A stretch of DNA of 26,492 nucleotides, from IMG/VR virus record IMGVR_UViG_3300023229_000073, positions 1 through 26,492 of that record. One strand, 5' to 3'. This document shows positions 9,130 through 23,873 of the stretch, piece after piece; the stretch's first letter is position 1, and each line of letters begins with the position of its first letter. The translations under genes and the position numbers were made by a program. The notes under the pieces were generated by a model, which was not told where the DNA came from, ran no database searches, and saw nothing but the letters and a program-made list of their open reading frames with translations. This DNA is from a virus. Taxonomy: Duplodnaviria > Caudoviricetes.

Positions 9130-9516
9130 TTAAGGAGGCTTCATCAAGCTTTGGGCTAGTGCATACTGCATTTGTTTGAGGCAGTGGATCTGTTTATGCT
9201 TGAGCTTGATGGCTTCTTCTATCTGGGAGATAGATGTTACTCGCTTAGGGCTGTGAAGCTCTATGAGTGGGAAATGTTTACTTATAAGTGAACGTGTCTC
9301 ATGTATGCTGATAAATGGAACTACTGATCCTCGGATAAGAGGATGGTACTTGTGGCTGTGCCAGAGGGCGAAGAGTTTACCGTAGGCGTCAGGATCATCA
9401 GTCCATACGCTGAAGGAGTTAATCATATACTCCTGGAGAGGTTTTCCAGAGTTATCACCCTTGCACTGAATCCACAGTGCAGGGCGATCTTCTGATTTTG
9501 TGTAGGTTAGCCTCAC
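9130..9516 (-). CDS. Hypothetical phage protein
   Basis: 128 aa, with a 4-bp GTGA overlap with the upstream ORF. Confidence 0.65.
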   Translation of the reverse strand: MRLTYTKSEDRPALWIQCKGDNSGKPLQEYMINSFSVWTDDPDAYGKLFALWHSHKYHPLIRGSVVPFISIHETRSLISKHFPLIELHSPKRVTSISQIEEAIKLKHKQIHCLKQMQYALAQSLMKPP

Positions 9517-9815: not shown

Positions 9816-10206
9816 TTTTTTCTTTAATTTCTAATGGTTGTACCAATCAGGGACCATTGGAAAATAAAGAGAGTAAACGACTAGGAGTGGATAGCTGAAG
9901 GGTAGGCCTGAAAAAGTGTGTGACGGTTTGCTCTGCTCACCGCGTAGCAGAACGTCTATAGAAATCTGTATCCAGCTGGTTTTATGGAATAAAAATGTAG
10001 GGCTGATAAAAATGTGACGAACGGCGAAGCAAGTGAAGTTGCTTTTTCTTAGCTGTACATAAGCTCCTTTAGATACTGTTTGATATAGACTTCTGGCACT
10101 CCTTTTTCGAGCACTGGGGCTATACACACCGTTTCAGAGCCAATCACCTGAAGAGTACTATCCTCCACCTCTGAGTATTTACTACTAACACACTATATTT
10201 GGGTAG

Positions 10207-10440
10207 ATGAAAAATGATAACAGAATAGCCGCTACTATCTTAGATGCGATTTACATAGGCAAGACACACGAAGGGTTCATCTATGACACTGAGTACAGAC
10301 TTCGAGCTGTGCGTAGCCCAGGTGGTGTGGTTAAGATCAAAGTCCATAAACCAGAGGGCCCTATAGAGTTATACGGTAGTGCAGCACATTTTGAGGCTAA
10401 CTGGAGCAATGTCCGAAGAATTGCAGCAGTACTTTGGTAG
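10207..10440 (+). CDS. Hypothetical protein with its own promoter
   Basis: 77 aa. TATATTTG (-7 box) at 10194-10201 ends 5 nt before the ATG. Confidence 0.6.
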   Translation: MKNDNRIAATILDAIYIGKTHEGFIYDTEYRLRAVRSPGGVVKIKVHKPEGPIELYGSAAHFEANWSNVRRIAAVLW

Positions 10441-10497
10441 CCATCAGCTGGATCACTCTAGAAAAAAATATATTCTTGAGTTTCTGAGCTGATTTTT

Positions 10498-10634
10498 CTA
10501 CTCTCCTACTCTCCTACTCTCTTTACTCGGAGCTACTCTCCATACTCTCCACTAGTATATATGTATAATAAGTAAGTATATATCTATAAATCAATGTATT
10601 ATACTATCAGAGAGTAAAGAGAGTTAAGAGAGCA
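10498..10634. repeat. Iteron array, putative replication origin
   Basis: CTACTCTC at 10498, 10506, 10514 and 10533 (variants at 10522, 10542), then a ~60-bp AT-rich spacer, then inverted GAGAGT copies at 10610 and 10619 (GAGAGC at 10628). Confidence 0.65.
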
Positions 10635-10648
10635 CTTTTTTGAGGTAT

Positions 10649-10679
10649 TTTGTATCTATGTTAAAAAAACCTAAATTCG
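10649..10679 (+). promoter_or_regulatory. Bacteroidota-type promoter facing the cassette array (Pc-like)
   Basis: TTTG-N19-TAAATTCG, close to the TTTG-N19-21-TAnnTTTG consensus. Confidence 0.55.
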
Positions 10680-10851
10680 TATGACTTAAAGTATATATAC
10701 TGACAGCTCTAACCATTTATTGTGGTTTATTAGTGTGATGTGAATCACACCTAGCGAAAATGCTGGTGTTTTTTATGTATACGAACTTTACTTGCAATCA
10801 GAAGACTAATATTGCTTGCCATTGCTAACTGCAAATAATGAGAATTGAAAT

Positions 10852-13800
10852 ATGACTATAGAAAATTACATTGACAATATAAACCAGAGGTATAAACTAG
10901 GGAACGCTACTGAGCATACATTTAGAGGAGACTTACAGCAGCTGTTAGAAAGTTTAGTTCCTGAAATAAGAGCTACCAACGAGCCTAAAAGACAATCTTG
11001 TGGTGCACCCGACTACATCCTGACTAAAAAAGATATACCTGTTGGTTTTATTGAAGCAAAAGACGTTGGTGATAAAGACCTTGAAGGGAAAAAGAAATCA
11101 GTAAACAAAGAACAGTTTGATCGCTACAAAGCATCATTAGACAATATAATTTTTACAGATTACATAGATTTTCATTTGTACAATGATGGAGAATTCATTA
11201 CTAAAATAGCCATTGCTGAAATAACAGAAGGAGGTATTGTACCCTTGTCAGAAAATTTTGCACGATTTAAAAATATTATAAAAGACTTTTGTGTTCATGT
11301 TGGACAAAACATTAAAAGTTCAAAAAAATTAGCAGAAATGATGGCGGGTAAAGCTAGACTTCTTTCTGACGTTATTGAAAAGGCTTTAACTAGTGATGAG
11401 ACTCACAATGAGGACAGCACACTGAAAGAACAAATGACTGCTTTTAAAAGCATTCTAATTCACGATATTACTCCCAAGGGGTTTGCGGATGTTTATGCCC
11501 AAACAATTGCCTATGGGATGTTTGCAGCTCGTTTGCACGATCCCACTTTAGATACTTTTAGCAGACAAGAAGCTGCTGAATTGATTCCTAAATCAAATCC
11601 GTTTTTAAGAAAACTATTTGGTTACATAGCTGGTCCTGATATTGACGACCGAATTAAATGGATTGTAGAAAATCTTGCAGAAATATTCTTAGCCTGTAAC
11701 GTGGAAGAAATTCTTAAAAATTATGGAAAGACAACAAAAATGGAAGATCCAATCATCCATTTTTATGAAACTTTCTTGGCTGAATATGACCCAAAACTAA
11801 GAAAAGCAAGAGGCGTGTGGTACACTCCTGCCCCTGTTGTTAATTTTATTGTAAGAGCAGTTGATGATATTTTAAAAACAGAATTTGATCTTCCGCAAGG
11901 TTTAGCCGACACTTCTAAAACAAAGATTAAAGTAAACACTCAAATTCCAGATAAAAATTTTAAATCTGGCTATAAACAAACAGAACAAGAAGTACACAAA
12001 GTACAAATTCTGGACCCAGCCACAGGAACAGGTACTTTTTTAGCAGAAGTAATAAAACACGTAAATAAAAACTTTAAAGGACAAGAAGGTATTTGGAGCA
12101 GTTATGTAGAGAACAATTTGCTCCCTCGTTTAAACGGTTTTGAGTTGCTCATGGCAAGTTATGCCATGGCTCATTTACAATTGGATTTATTGCTAAAAGA
12201 AACAGGATTTAAAGCTACAAAAGAGCAAAGAACAAGAGTCTATCTAACCAATAGTTTAGAGGAATTTCACCCAGATACAGGAACTTTATTTGCCAATTGG
12301 CTAAGTAGTGAAGCCAATGAGGCAAATCACATTAAGCGTGATACACCTGTAATGTGTATTATGGGTAATCCTCCATATAGTGGCGAAAGTGCTAACAAAG
12401 GAGATTGGATTATGGATTTGATGAAGGATTATAAAAAAGAGCCTGGTGGTAAGGAAAAATTAAAAGAACAAAACTCAAAATTTATTAATGATGATTATGT
12501 GAAGTTTTTACGCTACGGACAGCATTTTATTGAAAAAAACGGAAGTGGAGTATTAGCTTTTATAAATCCGCACGGATTTTTAGATAACCCTACTTTTAGA
12601 GGAATGCGGTGGAATCTTTTGAAAACGTATGACAAAGTTTATACGATTGATTTACACGGAAACAACAAAAAAAAAGAAACTTCTCCTGATGGTTCTGCAG
12701 ATGTAAATGTATTTGACATAATGCAAGGTGTTGCCATCACAGTTTTTGTGAAAACTGGAAAGAAAAAACCTAATCAACTTGGTAAAGTATTTCATTACGA
12801 TTTATATGGTAAGAGAGATTATAAATATGATTTTCTTTCACGTAACTCCTTAGCATCTATTAGTTTTATTGATTTGCCAAATAAAGCTCCAAATTATTTT
12901 ATGACTCCCAAAGATTTTGAAGCTGAAGATTCATATAATAAGGGGTTTGCTTTAAACGATTTATATATTACCAACTCTTTAGGGCTATTGACAAAAAAAG
13001 ACAGCTTTATAACATCTTTAGATAGGGATACTCTAATAGGGAAGTTAAACGATTTTATTGATCCATCTTTTTCTGATGAAGAGTTAAGCTCTAAATATAA
13101 TTTAAAACTAAAAGATAATGACAAATGGAACTTGAATAAAGCAAGGGCTAATATTCAAAATACAGGTATTTTAAAAAGTAAATTAATAAAACAGAATTAT
13201 AGGTGTTTTGATCAACGATGGATTTATTATGATGGGAGTTTTGTTGCAAGATTAAATACAAAGGTTTTGGATAATGTTAATGAACAAAGCCTTGCTATTA
13301 TTTCTACAAGGCAGTTAGCAGGGAACGAATTCTACCATTTATTCGTATCAAATAACAGATCAGATCAATGTTTTATTTCTAATAAAACAAAAGAGGGTTG
13401 TCAAGTTTTTCCACTTTACCTATATCCTAAGCAAAATGTCCAAAGAACGATTGATATTTCTTTAAGCTTAGTGCCGGGGTCAGCCAGAACCCCAAACCTT
13501 AACAGAGAAATTATTTTAGAACTTGCCAAAAAATTAAGTTTAACATTTACCGATGAGAAAGAACCCTTCGACTCCGCTCAGGCTGACAAAAACACTTTTG
13601 CTCCGATTGACATTTTGGATTATATCTATGCGGTTTTACACTCGCCAACGTATCGTGAGAAATACAAAGAGTTTCTAAAAATTGATTTCCCAAGAGTACC
13701 TTATCCAAAAGACGCAATTACTTTTTGGAGCTTGGTAAAACTAGGCGGAGAAATACGCAAAATCCATTTACTAGAATCGCCTAAAGTAGAGAATTACATT

Positions 13801-14106
13801 ACGACTTATCCAATTGATGGAGATAATATGATCACAACTAAAGTGGCAAAAAAAGATTGGGAATTATTTGATGAACAAAAACAATTGGGCAGAATATGGA
13901 TAAATGATGAACAGTATTTTGATAACGTTCCTTTAACTGCTTGGGAGTTCTACATTGGTGGTTACCAACCTGCTCAGAAATGGCTTAAAGACCGTAAAGA
14001 AAGAACCTTAGAATTTGATGATATTCTACATTATCAAAAGATAATCGTGGCACTTTCAGAAACGGATAGATTAATGAAGGAAATCGATAAAATTGAAATT
14101 GAGTAA
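10852..14106 (+). CDS. Single-chain restriction-modification enzyme (Type IIG/IIL-like: nuclease + N6-adenine MTase + Type ISP-like TRD)
   Basis: N-terminal PD-(D/E)XK (GAPDY...GFIEAKD), SAM-binding ILDPATGTGTF, catalytic GNPPY and ISP-type C-terminus (WEFYIGGYQPAQKWLKDRK). No helicase motifs seen. AT-richer than and opposite to the phage backbone. Confidence 0.9.
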   Translation: MTIENYIDNINQRYKLGNATEHTFRGDLQQLLESLVPEIRATNEPKRQSCGAPDYILTKKDIPVGFIEAKDVGDKDLEGKKKSVNKEQFDRYKASLDNIIFTDYIDFHLYNDGEFITKIAIAEITEGGIVPLSENFARFKNIIKDFCVHVGQNIKSSKKLAEMMAGKARLLSDVIEKALTSDETHNEDSTLKEQMTAFKSILIHDITPKGFADVYAQTIAYGMFAARLHDPTLDTFSRQEAAELIPKSNPFLRKLFGYIAGPDIDDRIKWIVENLAEIFLACNVEEILKNYGKTTKMEDPIIHFYETFLAEYDPKLRKARGVWYTPAPVVNFIVRAVDDILKTEFDLPQGLADTSKTKIKVNTQIPDKNFKSGYKQTEQEVHKVQILDPATGTGTFLAEVIKHVNKNFKGQEGIWSSYVENNLLPRLNGFELLMASYAMAHLQLDLLLKETGFKATKEQRTRVYLTNSLEEFHPDTGTLFANWLSSEANEANHIKRDTPVMCIMGNPPYSGESANKGDWIMDLMKDYKKEPGGKEKLKEQNSKFINDDYVKFLRYGQHFIEKNGSGVLAFINPHGFLDNPTFRGMRWNLLKTYDKVYTIDLHGNNKKKETSPDGSADVNVFDIMQGVAITVFVKTGKKKPNQLGKVFHYDLYGKRDYKYDFLSRNSLASISFIDLPNKAPNYFMTPKDFEAEDSYNKGFALNDLYITNSLGLLTKKDSFITSLDRDTLIGKLNDFIDPSFSDEELSSKYNLKLKDNDKWNLNKARANIQNTGILKSKLIKQNYRCFDQRWIYYDGSFVARLNTKVLDNVNEQSLAIISTRQLAGNEFYHLFVSNNRSDQCFISNKTKEGCQVFPLYLYPKQNVQRTIDISLSLVPGSARTPNLNREIILELAKKLSLTFTDEKEPFDSAQADKNTFAPIDILDYIYAVLHSPTYREKYKEFLKIDFPRVPYPKDAITFWSLVKLGGEIRKIHLLESPKVENYITTYPIDGDNMITTKVAKKDWELFDEQKQLGRIWINDEQYFDNVPLTAWEFYIGGYQPAQKWLKDRKERTLEFDDILHYQKIIVALSETDRLMKEIDKIEIE
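13564..13587 (+). repeat. REP-like element in frame within the R-M gene
   Basis: CCCTTCGACTCCGCTCAGGCTGAC, a GC-rich patch resembling Flavobacteria/Cytophagia REP units as I recall them. Encodes PFDSAQAD. Confidence 0.6.
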
Positions 14107-14781
14107 ATGACGACAATAATTATAATCATAAGCATATTATTGATATTCTTGATTGGTTTTATTCAATTATTCAGAACTCATTCACGCGAAACAACAAAAC
14201 TAGAATTTGCATTAGAGTATCGGTATAAATTTATTGAATTTAATAATAAATATTTTGAACAACATAATAGTTCGAAAAAATCAGATAATCTTGATAATGA
14301 ACTTTATGTTTGGCTCACGAAAAATGTGAGCAAAATCCAAAATAATGTAGGTAGTTTTGGAGTTATGTCATATAAACCTGCCTTTGAAAACTATATGATA
14401 AAAAACTATCAAATTATCATTAATACTATTCCTAAATTTAGAAAAGGGCAAATTCAAAATTTTGATGTAGCCTCTGTTGATGATTGCCTATTGAGATATA
14501 TTGGTCACGTAGAAGAACGCATAAAAGGAACATTAAAAAACTTAAAAAATCCAATAATTTGGTTTAGAATTGGATTTCAAGAAACCATTGGTATTCCTCT
14601 CTTTATTTTAAATTGGTTTGGGATTTTTAGCAAACTTAGAGTTAATAAGATAATGGAAAGTGCTATTTATAAAATATTTACAGGAATTATTGCTTTAATC
14701 GCCTTTTTAAGTAGTCTTGTCACAATTATTCAAGGGAAAGAAAAAACTATTGAGTTTATAAACAGAATATTAGGAAATTAA
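14107..14781 (+). CDS. Membrane protein of unknown function, coupled to the R-M gene
   Basis: TAAATG junction. N-terminal TM (IIIIISILLIFLIGFI) and C-terminal hydrophobic helices. Confidence 0.8.
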   Translation: MTTIIIIISILLIFLIGFIQLFRTHSRETTKLEFALEYRYKFIEFNNKYFEQHNSSKKSDNLDNELYVWLTKNVSKIQNNVGSFGVMSYKPAFENYMIKNYQIIINTIPKFRKGQIQNFDVASVDDCLLRYIGHVEERIKGTLKNLKNPIIWFRIGFQETIGIPLFILNWFGIFSKLRVNKIMESAIYKIFTGIIALIAFLSSLVTIIQGKEKTIEFINRILGN

Positions 14782-14819
14782 AATGCCAACGCCTTGCAGA
14801 CTGAAAGAAAATAACTAAA

Positions 14820-14872
14820 GCCCAACAATGCGTATAACCGCGTTAAAACGACGGCATACGCTATCGTTACAT
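14820..14872 (+). mobile_element. attC-like recombination site 1
   Basis: GCCCAAC(R'')-AATGC-GTATAACC(L'')-GCGTTAAAACGAC-GGCATAC(L')-GCTATC-GTTACAT(R'). The 7/5/8...7/6/7 spacing is that of classical attC sites. Confidence 0.7.
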
Positions 14873-14873
14873 C

Positions 14874-15155
14874 TCACCTGAAAGCCGTTTCGTCAATAAT
14901 TGCATTTATAAATCTGAACTTTCCTGTTAGCTCTGCTATCTCCATTTCGGTAAGAGGCGTTACTCTGCTCATATTAAATATAAGATCACAGGCTTTGATA
15001 GATTGTGTAATTTCACCTCCCCGTTTTAAAAGAGCTGCAAATACTTCGTAACTAGAAAGTCTTAAGTTCTTTAGTTTGTCGCTGTTTTGTTTGAAATCTT
15101 CTGAATGAGAGAAGTGCTTCACTAATAATTCGAATTCTTTGTATGATTGCTTCAT
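14874..15155 (-). CDS. Hypothetical protein filling the space between two attC-like sites (inverted cassette)
   Basis: 93 aa. Stop is 1 bp from R' of site 1 and start is 14 bp from R'' of site 2. Confidence 0.65.
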   Translation of the reverse strand: MKQSYKEFELLVKHFSHSEDFKQNSDKLKNLRLSSYEVFAALLKRGGEITQSIKACDLIFNMSRVTPLTEMEIAELTGKFRFINAIIDETAFR

Positions 15156-15169
15156 AATAACTCAACGCC

Positions 15170-15263
15170 CAATAACAATAACTATCATCAAGCAGGGCTA
15201 TCAGCTTGACGATAGTGTACAGGTTTAAAGAACTCCTGCTGGTTTATATTTTAGTCGTTACAC
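15170..15263 (+). mobile_element. attC-like recombination site 2 (longer, degenerate)
   Basis: CAATAAC...AGCAGG...CCTGCT...GTTACAC outer fold. Alternative inner hairpin ACTATCATCAAGC/GCTTGACGATAGT followed by GTTTAAA. Confidence 0.5.
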
Positions 15264-15265
15264 CA

Positions 15266-15583
15266 CTACTCCCACCACAGCTCTTTGCTCTCTAGCTTAG
15301 CCAGAATAGTTTCTTTTTTGAGGGTTCGTTTATCTGAAGACAGCTCCCAGTGCCCTATGATCTCTGCTCCCATATCTCGCTCTATTACGAATACGCTTCG
15401 TTTCACTAGGCGTATTCCGTCCATCCTTTGGGTGTTCCTGGTCTTTTCGGATTCGGCTCTCTTCACGAATGCATTGATAGCATTGTGCCAGAAGTACGCT
15501 ATATCTTTATCCGATACTCCTTCTGCTTTTAGCTTAGCTATTTGCGTGTCTACGCAGGCGTGAATTAGGTTTATACTACTCAT
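15266..15583 (-). CDS. Hypothetical phage protein
   Basis: 105 aa, starting 2 bp after the primase stop. Confidence 0.7.
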   Translation of the reverse strand: MSSINLIHACVDTQIAKLKAEGVSDKDIAYFWHNAINAFVKRAESEKTRNTQRMDGIRLVKRSVFVIERDMGAEIIGHWELSSDKRTLKKETILAKLESKELWWE

Positions 15584-21871: not shown

Positions 21872-22489
21872 ATGAAAGGATTAGACGTCAAAAGAATTAT
21901 GATAAATTATAATTTATCCCTTACAGAATTAGCCACGAAGATTAATAAGAGCCCTCAGCAAGTGGGGAGGTGGGTCAATAATCCAGAGACTAATGTATCT
22001 CATTCCGTGAGGAAACAATTCCAGACTGTTTACCCTGAATATTTTAAATACGAATCCCAAACTACAGATATAGCAATTGTCCGAGAAGAGCCAGGAGCAT
22101 TTAATCAAGCAAAATATATTGACGTTATTGAAGTTACTAATAGCAAAGATATTATGAATAAAAATCTAAAACCTGTAGGGAAAGTTGACGTGTCAGACTT
22201 TCTCGATTCCGAAAGGGGTATAATCATGCAAGGAGATGCCTTGAGTGGAGTAATAAATGGAGGAGACATCGCAGGAACCAAGGTGTGGACCCGTAGAGAC
22301 TTCTTCCTATGGGGGAGCATGTACGTGATAGTAAGTGACGGACATGTCATTTTTCGTATAGTGAAGCCAAGTGAAGATAAAGACTCAATCACCCTGATAT
22401 CAACTAAAGACACCTATGATCCCATCACCTTGCCCAAGTCGGCTATAGATGAGATGTATATCATTAATGGTGGGATAGTGAAGTACTAA
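21872..22489 (+). CDS. CI-like repressor (XRE HTH + degenerate S24 domain)
   Basis: LSLTELATKINKSPQQVGRWVN HTH. C-terminal GDAL...GGDI...LISTKDTYDPI follows the S24 pattern. Confidence 0.85.
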   Translation: MKGLDVKRIMINYNLSLTELATKINKSPQQVGRWVNNPETNVSHSVRKQFQTVYPEYFKYESQTTDIAIVREEPGAFNQAKYIDVIEVTNSKDIMNKNLKPVGKVDVSDFLDSERGIIMQGDALSGVINGGDIAGTKVWTRRDFFLWGSMYVIVSDGHVIFRIVKPSEDKDSITLISTKDTYDPITLPKSAIDEMYIINGGIVKY

Positions 22490-23615
22490 TCACGTCTTTC
22501 AGTGCATCATCTATCATCTCCTGACTGTACATTATATAGATATCCGTCACGTTTTTTTGTCTATGGCCCATTAGTACACCTATAAGCTCACGGTCATATC
22601 TCATATTTCTTGCTATTGTGGCGAAGGTGTGTCTAGCCACCTTACTTGTGAGCTTTTCACTCATCCCAGCCATAATAGAAAGCTTATTCATCATCAGATT
22701 CATTTCCTTTAGTAGATCTCTATACTGATTTACCGAGGTATATTCTATTCCGGATATTAAACGATCTTTATGCGGGTACTTCTCCATGATAGCCGCAGCT
22801 TGAGGAGTTACGTAGATTTTGACTTCGTCACCTCTCCCCCTGCTTTTCTTCCTTCGGAAATAGATATAGTCACCACTAGGTTTCTTCATCTGAGCAAGGT
22901 CTAGTACATCCACACCACCCAGACAATAGAGTAGCATCCATACATCTCTGTAATATGCCATCTTAGAGTCCAGCATTTTGAGCTCATAGATTCTAAGAAG
23001 GTTATCTTTAGATATAGATCGCTTAGCAGTACTGGCAGGACGAGGTACAGATCCTGAAGGGAATGGATTTTTCTTCGGCACTATATTCATCTTCTTACAG
23101 ATACGTTTGTAAACGGCACGCAGCCCCCTGGTGTACACGCTTATAGTATTGATACTCTTTCCGGCAGACATCAGCGAGTCCTTAAAGTCACTTATGTTCT
23201 CAGCAGTAAAGTCCTCCATAGCCAGTGTTTCTATATCAAGGATGGTTCTATATCTAGATACAGCAGTCTTCCAGGCCTCAGCATTTCGGGGGCTATTTAG
23301 TTTTTCATTTTCGTATAAGGAGGAGAATGCCTGTTCAAAATCTATCTGAATCTTACCAGACATGTCAGATCTGATCTGTGTAATAGACTTTCCTTCTGCG
23401 TAGTCTATTTTAATATTAAGAAGTCGATAAGTCAGATGCTTGCTTAGCCTTTCATTAATAGGCATCCCAGTATTAGCATCCCATTCTTTCGGGTTCACAT
23501 CAAACCCCGCATAGGTATATATCTGCTTTCTATGTTCAGTGATCCTCAGAAAAATTGGAGCTTTACCGTTTAACTTGATTTTACCCGCGATTAATACAAA
23601 CTTAAATGTAGCCAT
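22464..23615 (-). CDS. int: Tyrosine integrase (Bacteroidota arm-binding type)
   Basis: N-terminal GKAPIFLRIT arm-binding domain, SINTISVYTRGLRAVY, ARHTFAT, LMGH and TDIY. Adjacent to the tRNA-derived att core. Confidence 0.93.
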   Translation of the reverse strand: MATFKFVLIAGKIKLNGKAPIFLRITEHRKQIYTYAGFDVNPKEWDANTGMPINERLSKHLTYRLLNIKIDYAEGKSITQIRSDMSGKIQIDFEQAFSSLYENEKLNSPRNAEAWKTAVSRYRTILDIETLAMEDFTAENISDFKDSLMSAGKSINTISVYTRGLRAVYKRICKKMNIVPKKNPFPSGSVPRPASTAKRSISKDNLLRIYELKMLDSKMAYYRDVWMLLYCLGGVDVLDLAQMKKPSGDYIYFRRKKSRGRGDEVKIYVTPQAAAIMEKYPHKDRLISGIEYTSVNQYRDLLKEMNLMMNKLSIMAGMSEKLTSKVARHTFATIARNMRYDRELIGVLMGHRQKNVTDIYIMYSQEMIDDALKDVISTSLSHH

Positions 23616-23741: not shown

Positions 23742-23790
23742 TGGTCGGGGTGGCAGGATTCGAACCTGCGACCTCCTGCTCCCAAAGCAG
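23742..23790 (-). other. att core: 3' half of tRNA-Pro(UGG), not a full tRNA
   Basis: Minus strand CTGC-TTTGGGA-GCAG-GAGGTC-GCAGG-TTCGAAT-CCTGC-CACCCCG-A-CCA. No D arm or 5' acceptor strand upstream. Confidence 0.9.
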
Positions 23791-23873
23791 AAGTTTTTTA
23801 ATTACAAAACACTAAAAGTGTGTATGTTATGCAATGTTTGTTGATTTTAATTCCACAATGGTACTACACTTTC

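Follow-up and report, generated by a model that had tools for sequence, protein, structure and literature searches.

Clusters of attC sites lacking an integrase (CALINs) are known from phages: 17 of them were found in 10,705 phage genomes, including that of the Polaribacter phage P12002L, whose cassettes encode methyltransferases (Qi et al. 2023, PMC9892861). In the defence hotspots of P2 and P4 prophages, exchange of alleles by homologous recombination has been proposed (Rousset et al. 2022, PMC9122126). Complete integrons are nearly absent in Bacteroidetes according to IntegronFinder 2 (PMC9024848), and an integron-like recombinase subgroup has been described whose characteristic insertion is not fully conserved (PMC8138268). 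Here we analyse a block at positions 10649-15263 of a phage sequence of 26,492 nucleotides (IMG/VR record IMGVR_UViG_3300023229_000073; this whole stretch is referred to as the window), which carries a restriction-modification (R-M) gene and which a first-pass annotation had interpreted as an integron-like cassette array, loaded by a host recombinase at a promoter-equipped hotspot.

We found that the R-M gene and the 224-aa reading frame behind it are derived from a gene cassette of a Bacteroidota integron-like pool, and that this cassette is 5'-truncated, having lost its G/TT start and most of its leader. Our preferred reading, with a probability of roughly 0.55, is that a temperate Bacteroidota phage carries the truncated cassette as a stranded passenger in an accessory slot, and not as part of a working loading platform. 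The observations of the first-pass annotation were partly confirmed and its interpretation partly supported, as detailed below. The features of the locus are listed in Table 1.

Table 1. Positions of the features of the phage locus within the window
Feature	Position	Strand	Remarks
Origin-like region, candidate	10498..10624		four CTACTCTC repeats (10498-10540) and inverted GAGAGT repeats; common to L002
Bacteroidota-type promoter	10649..10679	+	TTTG at 10649, 19 nt, TAAATTCG ending at 10679; kept in L002
Terminator-like hairpin with T-run (10751-10766)	10749..10775	+	between promoter and cargo; left slot border at about 10774
Junction DNA	10775..10833	+	not in L002; no GTT
Last 18 nt of chromosomal cassette leader	10834..10851	+	identical to G071
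Type IIG/ISP-like R-M enzyme, single chain, 1084 aa	10852..14106	+	PADLOC PDLC03610, E=0; Pfam
224-aa helical protein, hydrophobic ends	14107..14781	+	Bacteroidota family; mostly follows, and is coupled to, a large gene (R-M in the cases checked)
Cassette 3' flank	14784..14819	+	collapsed GCCAACGC stub (14784) and A-rich run, as beside chromosomal family sites
Site 1, 53-nt attC-like, short Bacteroidota subclass, weak-scoring	14820..14872	+	G/TT at 14866/14867
93-aa reading frame	14874..15155	-	co-oriented with primase operon; fills interval between sites
Site 2, decayed	15170..15263	+	family-type left half; 13-bp stem at about 15181-15216; right end GTT at 15223 or 15257
Right slot border (15264) and 105-aa backbone gene	15264..15583	-	common to L002
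Integrase	22464..23615	-	arm-type phage integrase (PF17293) beside tRNA 3' fragment (attP-like); not IntI-like

The R-M cassette and its chromosomal counterparts

As the first-pass annotation had stated, the block contains an R-M gene, recognised by both PADLOC and Pfam, followed by a 224-aa open reading frame (ORF) with hydrophobic ends. The R-M ORF is intact (PD..EAK, motif I, NPPY), encodes a single chain that unites nuclease, adenine methylase and specificity domains, and matches the PDB entries 7lo5 (E 9e-34), 4xqk and 5ffj, as a relative of DrdV and LlaBIII. Among the cargo, a defence type is shown for this gene alone. It was also observed that the target-recognition region (window positions about 12830-13590) is replaced or diverged in every homologue compared, with conserved flanks.

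For the 224-aa protein, neither Pfam and PADLOC nor the named Atlas clusters and PDB folds gave a match. It has 237 homologues, and its family was located in 26 genome loci, mostly of Bacteroidota, where the gene is coupled behind an ORF of more than 300 aa in 14 of the 21 readable cases; in four of them (L013, L018, L025, L016) the large ORF was verified as R-M. Among 21 scored loci, five have a strong AAC...GTT hairpin no more than 330 nt beyond the gene, a count that omits four broken loci and one short locus. At L016 (Algoriphagus sediminis) a PF13495+PF00589 recombinase is followed by an array of seven same-strand sites in a row, whose first cassette is made up of the R-M gene, the 224-aa gene and a site, and in G214 an R-M homologue forms an intact single-gene cassette. 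The five PF13495+PF00589 recombinases found (one or two per genome, in four genomes) are without the insertion seen in true IntI, which scored above cut-off in one of five genomes searched. The claim that the block is of cassette nature is upheld in that its DNA is cassette-derived, its first site belongs to an attC-like family and an IntI-like recombinase adjoins such arrays in Bacteroidota.

The truncation is apparent from the rule obeyed by chromosomal cassette ends, whose first bases (GTT+N7) are the reverse complement of the bases before their own AAC (N7+AAC). Of the adjacent chromosomal pairs less than 4.5 kb apart, 20 of 24 have a self-complementary run of at least 7 nt; two of five longer pairs, counted apart, obey the rule. 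The start predicted for the phage R-M cassette is GTTGGGC, as in L017 and G075, and this sequence is absent from 10001-14110. In the closest R-M homologue (G071; 95% over the first 300 aa) the cassette starts at a GTT 130 nt before the ATG. Of these 130 nt, the final 18 and no more are identical in the phage, which perhaps retains another 40 nt in decayed form. The likeness of 10796-10833 to the leader end is marginal (its score is reached by 18-152 of 2000 shuffles), and a leader profile (nhmmer) fails to detect 10600-10851.

The left crossover that the first-pass annotation had placed at about 10787/10788 has no GTT there: the four top-strand GTTs in 10601-10852 lie at 10623, 10660, 10725 and 10768, and 10775-10851 contains none. 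As attI sites are poorly conserved, the attI test was made by the core alone, and no half-site of an attI-like or right-half motif scored above 2.0 on either strand of 10660-10860. Compared with 216 genomes of the family of G071, the region 14600-15420 gave short, chance-level matches only; therefore the block was not found contiguous in the chromosomes searched.

Several further observations concern the chromosomal system itself. Clean integron-like arrays with an IntI-like recombinase without the IntI insertion were seen at L016:5107-20050 (G001), L081 and L084; these have an attI-like G/TT right after the recombinase stop codon, 6-10 same-strand sites, and cassette ends self-complementary over 7-10 nt. 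The true IntI (TIGR02249 over cut-off; L035, G002:C5:110033-110971) belongs to Prolixibacter denitrificans, whose genome also has family-type sites. A second conserved element, of about 100 nt with repeated GCCAACGC, is the leader of many R-M cassettes (L168:11969-12099, L170, L016, L010, L017, L013) and also occurs 3' of the 224-aa gene, as a stub in 9 of the 26 loci, two of these being duplicates.

The attC-like sites and the reading frame between them

Site 1 is a weak but genuine member of the Bacteroidota attC-like family. The hairpin was confirmed as first described, with paired AAC and GTT cores, spacers of 5 and 6 nt, and A/C mismatches that turn into G-T pairs on the bottom strand; core pairing has a probability of 0.89 on the bottom strand versus 0.33 on the top strand (hairpin z -2.7). 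The single-base bulges lie on opposite arms and the spacers are paired. A 5/6 spacing is the classical attC spacing, and occurs in none of 28 classified family sites (12 of 40 were unclassified). Site 1 fits RYYYAAC and not GTTRRRY, and site 2 fits neither; family sites in Bacteroidota are themselves seldom canonical for these motifs (4 and 4 of 40). In length, loop and upstream flank site 1 agrees with the chromosomal sites L194, L020 and L189 (28 of 53 positions are identical to L194), and it stands directly after a gene on the same strand, as in Bacteroidota cassettes.

Two covariance models, R1 and R2, were built from bacterial sites alone, R2 from nine short ones. R1 puts 14820-14872 first, on the bottom strand and with exact ends, at 11.2 bits (E 0.57); the background reaches 11.8 bits in 84 kb, so this score lies within it. 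With R2, site 1 is the only match in 93.8 kb of phage DNA, again with exact ends, at 17.2 bits (E 0.11), and chromosomal members gave six matches at 33-60 bits. The combined half-site (position weight matrix) and pairing score of 23.4 is the top of the window by a small margin, is reached by one of 700 random 200-nt stretches, and lies below the family leave-one-out level of about 37. The exact site 1 pattern was absent from 301 genomes, and its 12 matches in viral contigs comprise the phage itself and 11 sequences that are not site-like; likewise, 30 of the 31 viral matches to the 17-nt flank ahead of the site are unrelated. An Rfam scan gave no match in the block, and a direct-repeat search revealed no sequence repeat shared by the two sites. 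A first loose hairpin scan was dropped, since many of its matches fell inside genes.

The second hairpin, as drawn by the first-pass annotation over 15170-15263, did not hold. Core pairing has a probability of 0.06 in this 94-nt form and 0.22 in a 60-nt version, the stable stem is confined to about 15181-15216, and neither R1 nor R2 matches the site. Only when the GTT at 15223 is taken as the right end does the spacing fit the family (5/7, which 7 of 28 family sites have), but that core is degenerate. The left half scores 13.4, a value reached at 2 of 131,154 background positions. Site 2 is probably a decayed remnant that had been drawn too long.

The inverted 93-aa ORF does occupy the interval between the sites, as reported; the self-complementary run at the ends of this interval (14866-15176) is 4 nt, short of the cassette-end rule. 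Its product has 35 distant homologues, none of them found in 401 Bacteroidota genomes (a search without a positive control genome), and no usable match in the Atlas or the phage collection. The one homologue seen in context (L198, 52%) is the C-terminal part of a 193-aa gene; its neighbours are ordinary phage genes, and no site adjoins it. The ORF reads best as a phage accessory gene.

The phage and its variable slot

The sole close relative found, L002, is 95% identical over the primase arm. Its alignment with the window ends at about 10774 and restarts at 15264: identity is about 97% as far as 10625, ranges from 68 to 92% in 25-nt steps between 10626 and 10775, and then falls to chance level. 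Therefore, the borders of cargo turnover are not the predicted GTT crossovers, a comparison that rests on this one independent relative and on two full alleles in all. The first-pass annotation had specified beforehand that borders of variable regions in relatives not coinciding with GTT sites would tell against its model, and this is largely what was found in the one close relative. The GTT at 15257 is not present in L002.

The slot of L002 contains a 226-aa ORF and a 912-aa MmeI-like enzyme, so that a Type IIG enzyme is present in both alleles (n=2), the other three ORFs being without a family match. No family-type site was found in the three intergenic stretches of L002 (best score 12.4, versus a null 95th percentile of 14.5). 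The cassette leader motif, which would point to a cassette origin of the MmeI-like gene, is present in 0 of 15 leaders of its homologues. Variable cargo of 1-5 kb between conserved phage genes, as is typical of prophage defence hotspots, is thus seen in the comparison of the window with L002. The AT-rich block described by the first-pass annotation is real (GC content 0.26-0.35 across 10501-15000, versus about 0.42 in the backbone), and its fixed hotspot behind a promoter is borne out by a variable slot and a conserved promoter.

Bacteroidota promoters have spacers of 19-21 nt. The promoter noted by the first-pass annotation has one mismatch to the Bacteroidota -33/-7 consensus TTTG/TANNTTTG (PMC6847099). 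The terminator-like hairpin downstream of it had been overlooked, and is weaker in L002. As a separate observation, promoter and hairpin could yield an RNA of about 90 nt (10686-10775, + strand), whose sequence is 68-92% conserved in L002 and whose fold is not conserved.

The window belongs to a temperate phage: it has genes for terminase-like and capsid-like proteins, an S49 protease, a primase, a repressor and an arm-type integrase. It is identical, over the stretches compared, to a 43-kb viral record (L001/G006). The host is probably a member of the Bacteroidota, because the best named matches of the primase are in Cellulophaga and Porphyromonas phages, at about 29% identity; no named phage has a closer primase. 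The integrase is an ordinary arm-type enzyme (PF17293), as had been noted. Neither an IntI nor an IntI-like gene was found, and no TIGR02249 match above cut-off was obtained, in the 43-kb record or in L002, both estimated incomplete (77% and 81%). The 3' part of a tRNA (window 23745-23810, - strand; anticodon TGG, read as Pro) lies upstream of the integrase, which suggests an attP-like site and the excised form of the phage.

Further relatives were sought in viral contigs with primase, 105-aa and promoter queries, which returned the identical record and L002 and nothing else; metagenomes gave one identical contig and two weak partial matches, and 401 genomes gave two primases at 26-29%. L002 shares the replication arm alone: beyond window positions 9130 and 21476 its integrase/immunity and head regions do not align with the window, which makes mosaics of both phages. 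Another small patch, at 9926-10100, is also variable: it is replaced in L002 and in a public contig of run X15. The metagenome runs containing the phage are labelled salt-lake or lake, and public contigs were compared for 4 of 24 runs. The joint 10728-15264 in run X15 agrees with the L002-type allele. Run X16 has near-identical promoter, R-M end and 224-aa pieces (window 10506-14806), with a diverged specificity region and the backbone uncovered; these are possibly the same module in another element.

Origin of the block and comparison with known systems

The block is an accessory (moron/defence) slot, bounded by the rightward promoter and, on its other side, by the place where the leftward primase operon ends. 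Its cargo turns over between relatives at borders other than GTT, as seen for one relative. Its present cargo consists of the 5'-truncated cassette (R-M gene, 224-aa partner and site 1) and, probably, a phage-type small gene with a second, decayed site. We propose that an illegitimate capture or trimming left the cassette as a fixed passenger, because without its G/TT start it could not be excised as a proper circle. Judging from its family, the R-M enzyme most likely restricts unmethylated DNA that invades the lysogen, and marks the DNA of the phage itself. The conserved flanks most likely serve for homologous recombination, by which alleles would move from phage to phage. Several facts weigh against this proposal, apart from its dependence on one independent relative. 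The cassette DNA stops exactly at G/TT, and each of the two GTTACA cores is 7-8 nt away from where a convergent phage-type gene has its stop codon, a placement that random capture or breakage would rarely produce; and two family-type left halves occur here, versus 2 among 131,154 background positions. Moreover, one contig of run X15 joins 14826 to 15262, bypassing the 93-aa unit (depth 16.7; the sequence between is not known, the shorter side is 32 nt, and the likeness threshold of 80 may admit other organisms), and one contig of run X6, which matches 14305-14819 but for a single difference, runs on into another family-type site (depth 4, a possible error). Together with the G/TT ends, these contigs keep recombinase-mediated entry alive. 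A host IntI-like recombinase might have inserted cassettes once or twice at secondary GTTs just past the stop codon that closes the leftward operon, much as IntI does in attG insertion, with a later 5' deletion and no present activity; entry would then have been site-specific and would have needed no dedicated platform. The right ends, placed near convergent stop codons and both continuing with TTACA, would suit such a history, as would the X15 joint, the presence of IntI-like recombinases beside such arrays in Bacteroidota, and the insertion of IntI1 at GWT genomic sites (10.1101/2022.09.11.507474). However, the left G/TT junction is not preserved, the GTT missing from L002 at 15257 was possibly not target DNA, an extra deletion step is required, and the activity of IntI-like recombinases is putative; we regard this history as possible, on balance unlikely.

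The model of the first-pass annotation, in which a host recombinase repeatedly loads and exchanges defence cassettes at a dedicated docking site equipped with a promoter, agrees with the fixed slot, the conserved promoter, the R-M cargo of both alleles, the two family-type sites on the same strand and the contig hints of further alleles with such sites. Nevertheless, swapping at GTT was not supported: the borders of L002 are off GTT and its cargo is without sites, the R-M cassette has no G/TT start, the 93-aa unit also fails the cassette-end rule, 10660-10860 shows no attI-like or right-half motif, a terminator-like hairpin separates promoter from cargo, and both sites are weak. An active loading platform is unlikely, and this form of it decidedly so. 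If repeated recombinase loading were true, the Bacteroidota cassette system would be linked directly to the turnover of prophage defence. A broader conjecture, which we consider rather doubtful, is that a host recombinase of the IntI-like kind, without the IntI insertion, lands time and again just past the stop codon that closes the leftward operon; temperate phages that have no recombinase of their own might then repeatedly sample the cassette pool of the host, trim cassette fronts to lock them in, and occasionally place small genes of their own (such as the 93-aa ORF) between sites, seeding new cassettes. It is very improbable that the two hairpins have nothing to do with cassettes and are explained by chance, or by terminator-type structures where convergent genes meet. 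The whole-sequence E-values are not significant, the R1 background exceeds the score of site 1, and neither model matches site 2; yet site 1 is the sole R2 match, has exact ends, lies where chromosomal homologues carry such a site, and shares flank and loop with chromosomal sites. Moreover, 1 of 700 random stretches reaches either score, and no T-run terminator was called at the site positions.

The phage-borne CALINs (PMC9892861) resemble this locus in having attC-like sites and methyltransferase-type cargo in phages without an integron integrase, a Bacteroidota phage being among the examples, and illegitimate capture was proposed there too. In contrast to them, the sites described here belong to a Bacteroidota family tied to a recombinase without the IntI insertion, and the locus has a full R-M enzyme, a 5'-truncated cassette and a slot shown to be variable by a relative. 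With the P2/P4 hotspots (PMC9122126) it shares a variable locus of 1-5 kb with conserved flanks and defence cargo; it differs in belonging to a Bacteroidota phage, in the position of the slot by the primase operon and not cos, and in its two full alleles, one with cassette remnants. Sedentary integrons and attG/SALIN insertions (Loot et al., 10.1101/2022.09.11.507474) likewise have a bottom-strand AAC/GTT hairpin, a site after the gene and an upstream promoter, whereas here neither IntI nor an attI-like core was found, GTTRRRY is not matched, the spacers pair and the cassette start is missing; moreover, site 1 measures 53 nt, versus an attC range of 57-141 bp (PMC3053210). The phage locus is not an integron, given that no IntI and no attI core were found. 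Its R-M enzyme joins nuclease, methylase and specificity domains in one chain, as do DrdV, LlaBIII and LlaGI, and differs from them in its own target-recognition region, which diverges among homologues.

The integron-like arrays of Bacteroidota (G001-G005) share with the phage the class, flank, loop and orientation of site 1 and the same R-M and 224-aa cassette; unlike the phage copy, they have self-complementary ends of 7-10 nt, stronger sites and often an adjacent recombinase. No description of this cassette system was found in the literature searched, mostly outside subscription journals and with supplements excluded (the CALIN table of PMC9892861 may hold similar sites). The system itself is the larger item, of which the window is a poor, decayed example and L016 a clean one. 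Since phage CALINs and prophage hotspots have already been published, the locus adds an example and not a new mechanism: a traceable case in which a defence gene of the chromosomal cassette pool has reached a prophage hotspot and has probably become locked in it, and in which both junctions can be read at single-base level.

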